A stretch of 21,872 nt of DNA from a virus: the IMG/VR virus record IMGVR_UViG_3300042988_002239, positions 1-21,872 of that record; one strand, written 5' to 3'. Below the pieces are notes generated by a model, which ran no database searches, was not told the DNA's origin, and was given only the letters and a program-made list of their open reading frames with translations. The position numbers and the translations under genes are program-made. Shown here piece by piece: positions 13,302-16,510 of this stretch (position 1 is the stretch's first letter; the number at the start of each line of letters is the position of its first letter).

Positions 13302-14230
13302 TGACTATGCATCTAGATCTTAGAAACTTTCATCTCTTCACTCACGCTGGGTGCATGGACGGGTCGGCTTCAGCCATCCTGTTCCAGCACGCTGGCGGAC
13401 AGAAGAAGAACATCAACTGGGTCCAGGCCGGACACGTCGATGAGTACGTCGCTGACTGCTCCGCAGTCAAGGACCCGAACAAGCAGCTCCTCTTTGTAGA
13501 TATCGCTCCGGCTAAGGACGACACGGCGATCTTCCTGCAATCTCGGGGTAACGCCTTCGTCATCGACCACCACGTGACGTCATCTCGCTTCGCGGGGAGG
13601 CCGGGATTCCATATCGATGTGCAGAACAACGCGTGCGGGTGCGAGAACTTCCGACAGTGGCTCGTGAAGGGTGGGATGGGTGCCTTTGACAAGTATCCGT
13701 ACCGCAGGTTCACCCAGATCATTGACGACCACGATCGCTGGAGGCAGCAGATCCCGTTCAGCATGGAGCTGCCTCGGTTCTTCTCGTTCATCGGGCAGCA
13801 GGAGTTCACTCGCAGGTTCATGAATGTAGAGGAGAGGTTCGCTGAGAACAAGGACCGTTACTGGACTCCGTTCGAGCTGGAGATGATGAACATCCTCGAG
13901 GGTGAGCAAGCGCGGAGGTTCAATAACGTGATGAAGCGCTTCGAGGTGGTGGAGCGCGAGTTCGAGGGCAAAAAGATCAAGGTCGGGTATGTCATCTCGG
14001 GCGAGATCAATTGCTCGGAGCTGCTGAACGATTACCTCAAAGCTAACCCTGAGGTGGACGCTGCATGTCAGATTAACGTCGACCTAAACAAAGTCAGCCT
14101 TCGCTCGAATGGGAAAGTCAATGTATCTAAGTGGGCAGGTGAGTGGGGTGGTGGTGGGCACGTGAACGCAAGTGGGCACTCTCTTCCAGACGGGCTTCCA
14201 AGAAAGGTGGCTGACCTGATTCATGGTTAA
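13301..14230 (+). CDS. DHH/DHHA1-family phosphoesterase (NrnA/RecJ-like fold)
   Basis: 'HAGCMDGSASA' (motif I-like), 'FVDIAP', 'VIDHHV' (DHH), 'IDDHDRW' and the DHHA1 'GGGGHVNASG'. Start overlaps the upstream stop (TAATG). Confidence 0.7.
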   Translation: MTMHLDLRNFHLFTHAGCMDGSASAILFQHAGGQKKNINWVQAGHVDEYVADCSAVKDPNKQLLFVDIAPAKDDTAIFLQSRGNAFVIDHHVTSSRFAGRPGFHIDVQNNACGCENFRQWLVKGGMGAFDKYPYRRFTQIIDDHDRWRQQIPFSMELPRFFSFIGQQEFTRRFMNVEERFAENKDRYWTPFELEMMNILEGEQARRFNNVMKRFEVVEREFEGKKIKVGYVISGEINCSELLNDYLKANPEVDAACQINVDLNKVSLRSNGKVNVSKWAGEWGGGGHVNASGHSLPDGLPRKVADLIHG

Positions 14231-15176
14231 GACGTTCGATGGTGATAACTTTGATGTTCTTTTCAAGAATGTAGTATCTGCGATTATCCGTAATCCAGAG
14301 CACATCTGCAAACCTCGTGGGCAGACGGTGAAAGAGATAATCGCGCCGACCCTTGTCCTACGTAATCCCAGAGCTCGACTTCTCGCCAACACGGCCCGCA
14401 AAGCTGATTATGGCTTTGGTGTTGGCGAGTTTTTCTGGTATTGGGAGGGGAAGCAAGATGTTGAATCAATGCTTTACTACAACAAGAGAATGGGAAATTT
14501 TAGCGATAACGGCTTTACTCTTAACTCTGCGTACGGTTATCGTACGCGGGTTAAACAATTTGGCGGCAAGATTCATCCAACATCGCTAGACAACTTCGGT
14601 GATGGAAAGACGCAGTGGGTCGCCGCCAGAGATGAGCTGATCCGTGACAATGACAGCCGCAGAGCTGTCTTGATGATCGGCACGCCCCTCGACTTCGTCG
14701 AGGGCGAGAATAGCAAGGACGTTCCCTGTACGCTGCATCTCCAGTTCTTTATCCGAAACAACAGACTGATCCTGCACACCAGCATGCGGTCAAACGATGT
14801 GTTCTGGGGTCTGACCTACGATCTCTTCAGTTTCACGCTTCTTCAGGAGCTGATGATGCTCGAGCTACAGGCTCAGGGGCTCCCGGGTCTGCAGCTGGGT
14901 GAGTACATACATACTGCTGGATCTCTTCACATTTACGATAAGCACTTTGAGCAGGCAGAGCAGGCAGTAGACGAGGCATCATCGACTAAGTTCCGTCCGG
15001 CAGCGAAGATGGAACCGATATCACATCTGGAATTGTCCAGGTTGGTATCGCTCGAACAGTCGTTGCGCGTTGGAAAGGTGGCACAGCTTGACGAAGCTCA
15101 GTTCCGTAGCGGGGTTAGATGGATGGCAGAGCAGCTCAACGCACACCGGCGGAAGCGGGACGCCGAGCGAGCATGA
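14223..15176 (+). CDS. Thymidylate-synthase-fold pyrimidine deoxynucleotide hydroxymethylase/methylase, most like T4 gp42 dCMP hydroxymethylase
   Basis: 'DNDSRRAVL', catalytic 'VPC(169)TLHLQF', 'SMRSNDVFWGLTYD(200)LFSF' and 'GSLHIYDKHF'. A gap-free by-eye alignment to E. coli ThyA 'PCHAFFQF...QRSCDVFLGLPFNIASY' places Asp200 at the Asn177 position. Confidence 0.8.
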   Translation: MVKTFDGDNFDVLFKNVVSAIIRNPEHICKPRGQTVKEIIAPTLVLRNPRARLLANTARKADYGFGVGEFFWYWEGKQDVESMLYYNKRMGNFSDNGFTLNSAYGYRTRVKQFGGKIHPTSLDNFGDGKTQWVAARDELIRDNDSRRAVLMIGTPLDFVEGENSKDVPCTLHLQFFIRNNRLILHTSMRSNDVFWGLTYDLFSFTLLQELMMLELQAQGLPGLQLGEYIHTAGSLHIYDKHFEQAEQAVDEASSTKFRPAAKMEPISHLELSRLVSLEQSLRVGKVAQLDEAQFRSGVRWMAEQLNAHRRKRDAERA

Positions 15177-15225
15177 AGGGAAGTGGGATCCTGCGACCGT
15201 TATCGGCCTCAAACAGTTTGACGAG

Positions 15226-15591
15226 GTGCTGGTGATCGGCAACCCGGCGTTTATGCCGTGGCTCAGCGACGTCTGCCGAGACATTAGCTCGGTCAGGAAG
15301 CCGGGTGAGTTGGCGATGCTGATCAAAGAGGGAGAGCAGTTTGATAAGGTCATTCTCCCTCGAGAGTCCATATTCTCTCCTGATCTGGTGCCACTTGTCG
15401 CGGCTCTGCTCAAGGATGCAGAGACTGAGAGAGGGATATTCGTCGTGTTCCCGCCAGGCGATGGGTGGACAGAGTCGGCCGGAGTGGACCTGTATTTCCC
15501 AGAGGGAAGAAGCTGGGAGCTGGATTCGACGTTCGGTCAGGTCCAGTTGTTTGAACTCGCACCCACAAGTTGGAGGATGATCCATGGGTAA
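15226..15591 (+). CDS. Hypothetical protein; start uncertain (GTG 15226 chosen; the ORF is open from 15070 but that would overlap the upstream gene by >100 nt)
   Basis: Alternating strand/helix-like pattern 'VLVIGNP...FDKVILP...IFVVFPPGDGW' suggests a small Rossmann-like fold. Its stop overlaps the next start. Confidence 0.45.
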   Translation: MLVIGNPAFMPWLSDVCRDISSVRKPGELAMLIKEGEQFDKVILPRESIFSPDLVPLVAALLKDAETERGIFVVFPPGDGWTESAGVDLYFPEGRSWELDSTFGQVQLFELAPTSWRMIHG

Positions 15592-15790
15592 CAAGTATAC
15601 TATGGAGTACAAGCTCTCTGTCAAGAATGAAGAGGGTGTTCAGACGACGTACGTCAAGAGAGTGATCGATCAGGGATTCATCGCGACTGAGCTCTCGACG
15701 CTTGCCGCTCGGGATGGTATCGAATTCTTCACCCTCCGCAAGGTCGTCGAGAAGCCGCTGGTCAAGAAACTGCTCAAGGAGACAAAGTGA
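15584..15790 (+). CDS. Small hypothetical protein (68 aa)
   Basis: It is coupled to both neighbours by overlapping start and stop. The composition looks coding. Confidence 0.5.
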   Translation: MGNKYTMEYKLSVKNEEGVQTTYVKRVIDQGFIATELSTLAARDGIEFFTLRKVVEKPLVKKLLKETK

Positions 15791-16182
15791 TGCCAGACAG
15801 TGATCCTACGAATCCGCAGGTAGACAAGCTGGACGATATGTACACCCGTCAGCGAGAGCTGATGGACGCGCTCATCGCGGGCGACAAGCTTCCAGAGTAT
15901 CCAGTCGACATCACGTCGAAGTACGGGCAGCGCCAGATCAAGGAGCTGACCTTCGCGATGATCGAGGAGATGACGGAGGGAACCTACATCCTGAAGAACA
16001 GGTCCCACCGGTTCACCGATCACACCGATGTCGATTTCGCACATTTCCGAGAGGAGCTCGGCGACGCTCTTGCCTACTTCCTGGAGATCTGCATCTTTGC
16101 GGGAATCTCTCCTGCAGAGCTGTACGAAGAGTACTGCCGAAAGAACTTCATCGTCAAGAAGAGAGTGACGGATGGATACTAA
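15790..16182 (+). CDS. MazG-like / all-alpha NTP pyrophosphohydrolase (dimeric dUTPase/dCTPase-like), copy 1
   Basis: 'FAMIEEMTEGT' (EExxE-type metal site), 'FREELGDALAYFLEI', 'LYEEYCRKNFIVKKR'. GTG 15787 is an alternative start. Confidence 0.65.
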   Translation: MPDSDPTNPQVDKLDDMYTRQRELMDALIAGDKLPEYPVDITSKYGQRQIKELTFAMIEEMTEGTYILKNRSHRFTDHTDVDFAHFREELGDALAYFLEICIFAGISPAELYEEYCRKNFIVKKRVTDGY

Positions 16183-16510
16183 GATCCTCCACGACTTCCA
16201 GAAGTTTGTGCTCTCCATGAGGATGTGTGGAGCAGAGGTCAAGCCAGAGAATCAACCTCTCTGGACGATCGGTCTGGTTGAAGAGGCGGGTGAGGTCGCG
16301 GGTCAGATCAAGAAGGAGTTGTACCACGGCTGGCCCAAAGATGACGCTCGGGTCGTCAGCGAGTGTGGAGACGTCCTGTTTTATATGACTTGTATTCTGC
16401 ATGACAGGGGGCTCTCGCTTGAGCATGCGATGCTGGCGAACATCGAGAAGTTAAAACGCAGATATCCAAATGGGTTCACGAAGTACGATTCAATCAATAG
16501 AAAGGATTAA
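16172..16510 (+). CDS. MazG-like nucleoside triphosphate pyrophosphohydrolase, copy 2
   Basis: 'LVEEAGEVAGQIKK', 'ECGDVLFYMTCI', 'NIEKLKRRYPNGF' form the classic phage MazG motif set. Confidence 0.75.
   Translation: MDTKILHDFQKFVLSMRMCGAEVKPENQPLWTIGLVEEAGEVAGQIKKELYHGWPKDDARVVSECGDVLFYMTCILHDRGLSLEHAMLANIEKLKRRYPNGFTKYDSINRKD

Follow-up and report, generated by a model that had tools for sequence, protein, structure and literature searches.

Can an uncultured phage carry its own pathway for replacing cytosine in its DNA? The question is raised by the IMG/VR record IMGVR_UViG_3300042988_002239, a complete metagenomic contig of 21,872 bp (hereafter the window), which holds phage replication and nucleotide-metabolism genes on its + strand, among them a gene of the thymidylate synthase (TS) fold followed by two pyrophosphatase genes. 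An initial annotation, made from the letters alone, had read these genes as a candidate cytosine-replacement module. We find this to be the best-supported explanation: judged from sequence, the window probably encodes a T4-style module for 5-hydroxymethylcytosine (5hmC, hmC) in a phage lineage new to this pathway, and the module includes additional conserved genes. The genes under discussion, including two that we call U1 and U2, are as follows.

13301-14230, + strand: DHH/DHHA1 phosphoesterase, weakly NrnA-like (DHHA1, 3.2e-7; phrog_4771, 3e-21)
14223-15176, + strand: TS-fold enzyme, predicted deoxycytidine monophosphate (dCMP) 5-hydroxymethylase (PF00303, 7e-22), with a C-terminal tail of ~60 aa
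15088-15591, + strand: U1, 167 aa; begins at a TTG codon within the TS gene, in the +1 frame, and overlaps that gene by 89 nt (15088-15176)
15584-15790, + strand: U2, 68 aa, overlapping U1 by 8 nt and the next gene by 4 nt
15787-16182, + strand: PP1, all-alpha nucleoside triphosphate (NTP) pyrophosphohydrolase of the dUTPase_2/T4-gp56 kind (by PHROG and fold), predicted deoxycytidine triphosphatase (dCTPase)
16172-16510, + strand: PP2, canonical MazG-domain pyrophosphohydrolase (PF03819, 6.6e-11, 42.8 bits against a cutoff of 22; phrog_229, 2e-26)

We aligned the TS-fold protein with E. coli ThyA using MAFFT; the ThyA reference sequence carried the expected residue at 18/18 landmark positions checked. 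Codon 169 of the window gene, TGT (nt 14727-14729), encodes the catalytic Cys within 'DVPCT' and falls on C146 of ThyA, and codon 200, GAT (nt 14820-14822), encodes the Asp within 'TYDLFSF' and falls on N177. Both placements had been proposed by eye in the initial annotation, and both stand, with no Asn placed at the N177 position. The other key residues are Glu69, Ser102-Ala103-Tyr104 (14526-14534), Arg146/Arg147 (14658-14663), Asp166 (14718-14720), Thr170, Ser190, Asp192 (14796-14798), His236 and Tyr238.

A search at E<=1e-10 returned 659 homologues. We checked the signature residues in the window protein and in those 119 of the homologues that belong to the clade (48-72% identity). C169, E69, Y104, H236 and Y238, which correspond to Cys146, Glu58, Tyr94, His207 and Tyr209 of ThyA, are invariant in 119/119. 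The same full count holds for Asp in the N177 column (Asp200 in the window), for the Asp three residues before the catalytic Cys (D166) together with the Ser-x-Tyr triplet S102-A103-Y104, for Asp in the ThyA D169 column (Asp192), for the equivalents of ThyA Ser167 and Arg126 (Ser190 and Arg146), and for Thr in place of ThyA His147 (Thr170), as in T4 gp42. Trp83 of ThyA is replaced by Phe or Tyr in this clade, and Leu143, a hydrophobic residue that shields the ThyA active site, is replaced by Asp166 in the window enzyme.

An Asp at the N177 position sets cytosine specificity (PMC13326640, PMC8670742, PMC5175136), and ThyA position 147 is associated with modified contigs (PMC8670742). The hydroxymethylase signature, derived from the ternary complex of the T4 dCMP hydroxymethylase (dCH), consists of Asp or Glu at Cys-3 plus Ser/Thr-x-Tyr, in a water-activating geometry, and the T4 dCH mutants D145N, S94N and Y96F are inactive (PMC6400193). 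Every feature of a dCMP 5-hydroxymethylase that can be read from sequence is found in the window enzyme, which is a predicted hydroxymethylase of the cytosine-specific type, as first proposed. It lacks the features of ThyA, of the ribo-specific MilA class and of the RB69-type hydroxylase. A dCMP methyltransferase that makes 5-methyl-dCMP is attributed to phage XP12, and from this class the predicted hydroxymethylase is set apart by the hydrophobic-143 rule only.

T4 gp42 (from NC_000866) matches the window enzyme at 29% identity over 120 aa (BLASTP, E 1e-12), and the 'MRSNDV' and 'GSLH[IV]Y..HF' blocks are common to the two, as the initial annotation had proposed. The window enzyme belongs to PHROG 5131 and gp42 to PHROG 160. 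The best PDB match is MilA, a cytidine monophosphate (CMP) 5-hydroxymethylase (E 9e-30, residues 14-262); gp42 is not the closest solved relative. True TSs in the PDB match at 3e-15 or weaker. The NCBIfam thymidylate-synthase equivalogs score no more than 65 bits against cutoffs of 108-427, that is, 4-6 times too low, and the best of them reaches 65 bits where its cutoff is 327.

PP1 is a gp56-like all-alpha NTP pyrophosphatase. It matches phrog_12184 (2e-13) and phrog_173 (1e-4), both of which T4 gp56 matches too, and the two proteins end in a common ...GY C-terminus. The AlphaFold2 (AF2) model of PP1, with a predicted local distance difference test (pLDDT) score of 88, is a four-helix bundle. 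Foldseek placed the human and mouse dCTPase DCTPP1 on top among PDB structures (probability 1.0), with YpjD, iMazG, HisE and DR2231 as further neighbours, and the top match in BFVD is a phage 'dUTPase' (E 3.9e-4); a PDB sequence search with PP1 returned nothing useful. The acidic metal ligands E53, E61, E64, E89, E90 and D93 are invariant. PP1 is present in every related locus that reaches its position, at 50-79% identity and just downstream of the TS gene. By analogy, from its family and its fixed position beside a cytosine-specific enzyme, we predict deoxycytidine triphosphate (dCTP) to be its substrate.

PP2 carries the EExxE...ExxD motif ('EEAGE', 'ECGD') and matches YpjD (2e-4) and DCTPP1 (0.016) in the PDB. 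A tblastn search found no PP2 homologue in any of ~20 related loci, suggesting that PP2 is an accessory of this phage and lies outside the conserved cassette. The earlier proposal of two MazG genes in the module holds insofar as both encode all-alpha NTP pyrophosphatases and PP1 is conserved; the membership of PP2 falls away.

For the comparison of gene order we fetched ~25 related loci, which are cited by L numbers where one has to be named. The order DHH-TS-U1-(U2)-PP1 was found in every locus long enough (~20 loci), and also in the L024/L025 lineage at only 48% TS identity. Neighbouring genes in the window overlap by 1 nt (ribonucleotide reductase, RNR, and DHH), 8 nt (DHH and TS), 89 nt (TS and U1), 8 nt (U1 and U2), 4 nt (U2 and PP1) and 11 nt (PP1 and PP2). 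We propose that 13301-16182 is a translationally coupled five-gene cassette of an uncultured phage clade. Because a gp56-like NTP pyrophosphatase is the conserved neighbour of a hydroxymethylase-type enzyme, the route from dCTP to dCMP to hydroxymethyl-dCMP (hm-dCMP) is the best reading of this arrangement.

Some of the related contigs reach 210-220 kb and encode Pol III alpha. Near Pol III alpha, relatives carry a P-loop kinase candidate (AAA_28/phrog_761), an RGP protein (PF03214, 1e-35), a GT1-like protein and a protein marked GT4-conflict; the kinase/glycosyltransferase regions are L004 17511-20711, L006 17655-19461, L025 7533-10391 and L001 15679-16239. None of these genes is found in the window. 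They are candidates for what a T4-like route needs after hm-dCMP, and since relatives carry a P-loop kinase and glycosyltransferases, the base in the DNA would probably be hmC that is then glycosylated, as far as the neighbouring genes of the relatives indicate. A paper on a new aquatic jumbo-phage lineage makes no mention of the module (PMC12619734).

We hypothesize that the cassette makes 5-hydroxymethyl-dCMP before replication. PP1 would hydrolyze dCTP, and probably also deoxycytidine diphosphate (dCDP), deoxyuridine triphosphate (dUTP) and deoxyuridine diphosphate (dUDP), to the monophosphate, both removing the canonical precursor and supplying the substrate. In the TS-fold enzyme, Cys169 would be the nucleophile and Asp200 would read and protonate the cytosine while the methylene group of methylenetetrahydrofolate (CH2-THF) is transferred to C5; a water molecule activated by Asp166 and placed by Ser102 and Tyr104 would then add to the exocyclic methylene, yielding hm-dCMP and tetrahydrofolate (THF). 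We infer these roles because the residues have experimentally shown roles in T4 dCH. The phage polymerase would receive hm-dCTP through a kinase from outside the window and the host nucleoside diphosphate kinase (NDK). Oligonucleotides may be turned into deoxynucleoside monophosphates (dNMPs) by the DHH protein, U1 would serve as a conserved partner, possibly a binding subunit, and PP2 would be an extra MazG protein of this phage only. The chemistry of the cassette is most likely the known hmC chemistry; what is new is the uncultured lineage, the MilA-like branch of the enzyme, the fixed five-gene architecture and the two conserved partners, DHH and U1.

The Joint Genome Institute (JGI) annotation places the start of U1 at 15226, and the initial annotation likewise gave the gene as 15226-15591. 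That start would leave out the invariant WDPAT motif, whose W33 is encoded further upstream, at 15184, so U1 begins earlier, at 15088; the only in-frame starts upstream of 15226 lie within the TS gene. Across 17 related loci located by a motif scan, the codon aligned to 15088 is TTG in 12 and ATG in 5, and never another Leu codon; four further loci were unscored by the scan. A Shine-Dalgarno-like sequence, GGAAAGGTGG, lies at 15072-15081 on the + strand, inside the TS coding sequence. In most related loci a G(G)AAAGGTG box stands 8-16 nt 5' of the aligned start, a few loci having variants of it, and in the three loci with an endonuclease insertion the upstream box is GGAAACGG.

We also computed the per-position variability (entropy) of the TS codons across 13 loci. 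Third codon positions vary by 1.0-1.6 bits along the gene and by 0.34 bits in codons 286-300 (15078-15122), where variability follows the order position 1 > position 2 > position 3; codons 301-315 are back to the normal TS pattern. This order is the one expected if the +1 (U1) frame is under selection, and the collapse of variability at 15078-15122 is just what textbooks describe where the start of one gene is overprinted on another. The overprinted stretch of the TS tail carries the start codon of U1 and its first ~12 codons, and on the combined evidence of the WDPAT motif, the conserved start codon, the ribosome-binding site and codon variability the start at 15226 is replaced by 15088.

Homing endonucleases target the TS/U1 spot in relatives (L002 9061-9501, L003 948-1514, L022 107-1468). 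In L002 an HNH/EndoVII-like endonuclease gene stands between TS and U1; the overlap segment is duplicated and both genes are intact. In L022 a GIY-YIG endonuclease is fused or adjacent to a gp42-type TS that has replaced the resident TS, and the locus keeps U1 and a remnant of the old TS C-terminal tail.

U1 has no Pfam, PHROG or NCBIfam match. An exhaustive profile search found 35 cluster representatives among 1.84 billion proteins, scans found 2 loci in IMG/VR and 13 in metagenomes, and U1 lies directly after TS in every related locus extending far enough. In the AF2 model (pLDDT 79, >85 from about residue 30), the N-terminal ~26 residues are predicted to be disordered and are followed by a compact alpha/beta domain, predicted to be a class I methyltransferase-like Rossmann fold from which one beta-alpha unit is apparently missing. 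Nearly all of the top 50 Foldseek matches in the PDB are class I S-adenosylmethionine (SAM)-methyltransferase or aminopropyltransferase folds (E from 4e-4, template modeling (TM) scores of 0.45-0.5). The SAM motif I position reads GNPAF (GSGRF and GSNVY in distant members), without a GxGxG loop, and strand 2 is followed by a basic 'VRK', the acidic residue of SAM binders being absent. Invariant residues of the close family (N52, R92/E93 and D125-G-W127) lie at the C-terminal ends of strands. The distant lineage L024/L025 does not conserve them, which makes a catalytic site of fixed residues less likely. Identity to that lineage is 28% for U1, compared to 48% for TS and 56% for PP1, so that U1 evolves much faster.

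We rejected U1 as a kinase substitute, a role suggested in the initial annotation: it has no P-loop, its 'GGSGTPS' stretch is unconserved, its fold is methyltransferase-like, and relatives have a separate P-loop kinase candidate. A MilB-like or nucleoside deoxyribosyltransferase (NDT)-like N-glycosidase was also rejected, as no NDT fold occurs among the 50 best Foldseek PDB matches, and an active SAM methyltransferase is unsupported by the motifs of U1. We tentatively regard U1 as a conserved, fast-evolving partner, most likely a non-catalytic, binding or scaffolding subunit of a nucleotide complex. That U1 is a functional new component of cytosine modification, whether an enzyme derivatizing hm-dCMP to a new base or an obligatory coupling subunit, seems to us unlikely. 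In its subunit version such a component may couple dCTP hydrolysis, hydroxymethylation and phosphorylation. Either version, if real, would mean that an uncultured jumbo-phage clade makes hmC before replication with a second architecture, different from that of T4.

The DHH protein, the first gene of the cassette, has intact DHH and GGGH motifs, with its start overlapping the RNR stop and its end overlapping the TS start. NCBIfam NrnA and the PDB give only weak matches to it, confined to the GGGH region. It lies directly 5' of TS in every related locus long enough, at 36-71% identity, and its position between RNR and TS hints at nucleotide salvage in which dNMPs are recovered from oligonucleotides. 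Phage DHH proteins have also been suggested to act against signalling, degrading cyclic-oligonucleotide signals as anti-defence (PMC7824862), and such a phosphodiesterase role is possible for the window protein. U2 has no Pfam, PHROG or NCBIfam match; counterparts at the same position in five other loci (29-42% identity) form a weak positional family, and four related loci (L018-L021) lack U2, the stop of U1 there overlapping the start of PP1. U2 is a variable, dispensable member of the cassette. Of the two intervening genes, which the initial annotation had as possible pathway components, U1 is a conserved neighbour and U2 is dispensable.

Several other explanations would account for part of these observations. 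The cassette may make hm-dCMP and U1, with or without DHH, may be a new enzyme that modifies it further, O- or N-alkylation being one example, so that the final base is a cytosine derivative not seen before. The invariable place of U1 directly after TS, its translation start inside the TS gene, its class I methyltransferase-like fold and the close-family invariants at strand C-terminal ends, where such folds bind ligands, would suit an enzyme; GNPAF instead of the GxGxG loop, basic rather than acidic residues after strand 2, the loss of the invariants in L024/L025, the lower identity of U1 than of TS and PP1 in that lineage, and the lack of a match to any known family do not, and we hold this version to be quite doubtful. 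The TS-fold enzyme might instead be a dCMP methyltransferase of the XP12 kind, making 5-methyl-dCMP with a hydride from THF. Conversion of N177 to Asp is by itself sufficient to turn ThyA into a dCMP methylase (PMC8670742), which gives this idea its appeal; the invariant Asp166 in place of the hydrophobic Leu143, the equally invariant Ser-x-Tyr water-binding pair and the change of Trp83 to Phe or Tyr make it very unlikely.

A further candidate is a flavin-dependent 5-hydroxy-dCMP synthase of the RB69 type, which would open a route to O-glycosylated 5-hydroxycytosine. N177D and an acidic residue at position 143 are shared with that class, and relatives carry glycosyltransferases and a gene of the RGP family, which includes NDP-sugar mutases. 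However, all tested 5-hydroxy-dCMP synthases have Asn at D169 (PMC13326640), and this diagnostic change is absent from the window clade; in our control alignment RB69 gp48 (NC_004928) has Asn in that column and T4 gp42 has Asp, so the classes are separated. Since the Asp169 equivalent is kept, the enzyme would not be of the RB69 type, and we rank this explanation as the least probable of all. The genes might also serve no DNA modification, the enzyme being either a MilA/BcmA-like CMP (ribo) hydroxymethylase for a free modified base or metabolite or an ordinary ThyA paired with a dUTPase to provide thymidine monophosphate; MilA is indeed the closest solved relative, and dUTPase_2 proteins are often dUTPases. 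Ala176 and Lys133 set the ribose preference of MilA, and an A176S/K133R mutant has no CMP activity (PMC5175136). Ser190 and Arg146, the equivalents of Ser167 and Arg126 of ThyA, represent the deoxy-specific state and indicate a deoxyribo substrate, unlike that of MilA. There is no MilB-like glycosidase, the Foldseek matches of U1 being methyltransferase folds. Asp200 and Thr170 exclude specificity for deoxyuridine monophosphate (dUMP), the ThyA equivalogs score far below their cutoffs, and the genes lie in the replication operon of a lytic-type phage. Taken together, these points make an explanation without DNA modification highly improbable.

A number of observations weigh against the T4-style hydroxymethylation module itself. 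By sequence, ribo-specific MilA is a nearer relative of the TS-fold enzyme than gp42 is, and the signature rules stem from few characterised enzymes, the RB69 case showing that the fold can surprise. The dCTPase assignment of PP1 is based on weak homology, and the substrate cannot be read from the all-alpha NTP pyrophosphatase fold. PP1 scores 19.4 bits with PF08761 (dUTPase_2), below the cutoff of 22.9; T4 gp56 itself scores only 25.4 bits, over the same C-terminal region, and 25/25 sampled PP1 family members match PF08761 at E<0.01. The direct comparison of PP1 with gp56 is weak (BLASTP E 0.005; hhalign 44% probability), as are the Foldseek E values for DCTPP1 (0.07-0.2). In protein searches the highest identity to a cultured phage was 37%, for DnaB; TS reached 32%, in Bacillus phage G. 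No kinase, glycosyltransferase or canonical thymidine monophosphate (dTMP) synthase is visible in the 21.9-kb contig. With these points counted, we still consider a T4-style cytosine-replacement module the probable function of the cassette.

The setting of the cassette is that of a phage replication region, as the following features indicate.

11544-13301, + strand: class II (adenosylcobalamin) RNR NrdJ (TIGR02504, 466.6 bits, cutoff 399.95)
1087-1791, + strand: HD-domain protein, ~12 kb from the TS-fold gene
Elsewhere in the window, + strand: PolA fragment, SLT transglycosylase, RecA-like protein, 5'-3' exonuclease and DnaB

NrdJ lies directly upstream of the cassette, in one run of touching genes, and this position is kept in relatives. 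The RNR and DHH genes are true neighbours, as the initial annotation had them; the HD-domain protein it called nearby is ~12 kb away. Megablast, run with the full window on 50,697 phage records, gave zero matches, and a promoter and terminator scan of 9000-19500 gave a site count not above that of shuffled sequence.

The window holds other genes of note. An MT-A70 family (adenine N6) methyltransferase is encoded at 20489-21073 and also in relatives L002, L005 and L006, suggesting a second, independent DNA modification in the clade. A 140-aa protein (18404-18826) with weak ParB-like PHROG matches and a match to phrog_17560 is found in all long related loci at 52-69% identity. Unusual phage cargo includes an anthrax-lethal-factor-like (ATLF) metalloprotease domain (5229-5762, 3.7e-6), of which L005 has one too, and a PTH2-like peptidyl-tRNA hydrolase domain (18951-19259, 3.4e-5). 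Downstream of PP2, a collagen-repeat protein (16470-17159, probable start 16515) has an N-terminus like a lipoprotein signal peptide with a lipobox, and matches tail-fibre PHROGs via its Gly-X-Y repeats only. The 252-aa protein at 17169-17927, which has no family match, begins with a signal peptide and ends in ...GYRF, an ending that looks like the signature of an outer-membrane beta-barrel and hints at a Gram-negative host.

If the proposed function is true, hmC, probably glycosylated, takes the place of C in the DNA of an uncultured phage clade that is widespread and comes from environmental metagenomes. DNA of this kind would be protected from many restriction enzymes and from some CRISPR effectors, and amplification- or enzyme-based sequencing of these genomes would be biased. 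The cassette offers a small set of enzymes that can be tested, belonging to a lineage other than that of T4 gp42. It also illustrates cleanly how TS homologues can be assigned to the methylase, hydroxymethylase, hydroxylase and ribo-specific classes by their published active-site signatures, and it draws attention to the conserved partners DHH and U1, the latter with a documented overprinted start.

Among known systems, the cassette is best compared to that of T4. The window enzyme shares with T4 gp42 (EC 2.1.2.8; PDB 1B5D/6A9A) the catalytic Cys, the Glu, Ser-x-Tyr, the Asp at Cys-3, RSND, the Asp at N177 and HxY. As with gp42 and gp56, an NTP pyrophosphatase would feed a cytosine-specific TS homologue, and kinase and glycosyltransferase genes occur in relatives. 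The two differ in that identity to gp42 is 29% over 120 aa with a different PHROG, the window enzyme has the ~60-aa C-terminal tail, and genes 42 and 56 of T4 are ~9 kb apart, whereas the genes of the cassette touch. The replisome of the window clade is of the Pol III-alpha/PolA type, unlike that of T4. We know of no obvious counterpart of the conserved DHH and U1 partners in the T4 pathway, though no search of T4 aimed at them was made.

PP1 and PP2 resemble the mammalian dCTPase DCTPP1 and MazG-like all-alpha NTP pyrophosphatases in their four-helix fold and EExxE...ExxD metal site; the similarity to DCTPP1 is at the level of the fold only (16-18% identity), so that substrate preference is not transferable. 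MilA/BcmA (PDB 5JNH, 5B6D) is the best solved match of the TS-fold enzyme, of similar length and with Asp at the N177 and L143 positions. It differs in having Ala176/Lys133 (ribose) where the window enzyme has Ser190/Arg146 (deoxy), and the window gene lies in a phage replication operon, in a cassette without a MilB-type N-glycosidase neighbour. RB69 gp48 and DLP3 gp80 (Lee et al., NAR 2026) are TS homologues too, likewise having N177D and, at position 143, an acidic residue; their phage clusters include a kinase and glycosyltransferases. They carry D169N and use flavin and O2, whereas the window clade keeps Asp169 throughout.

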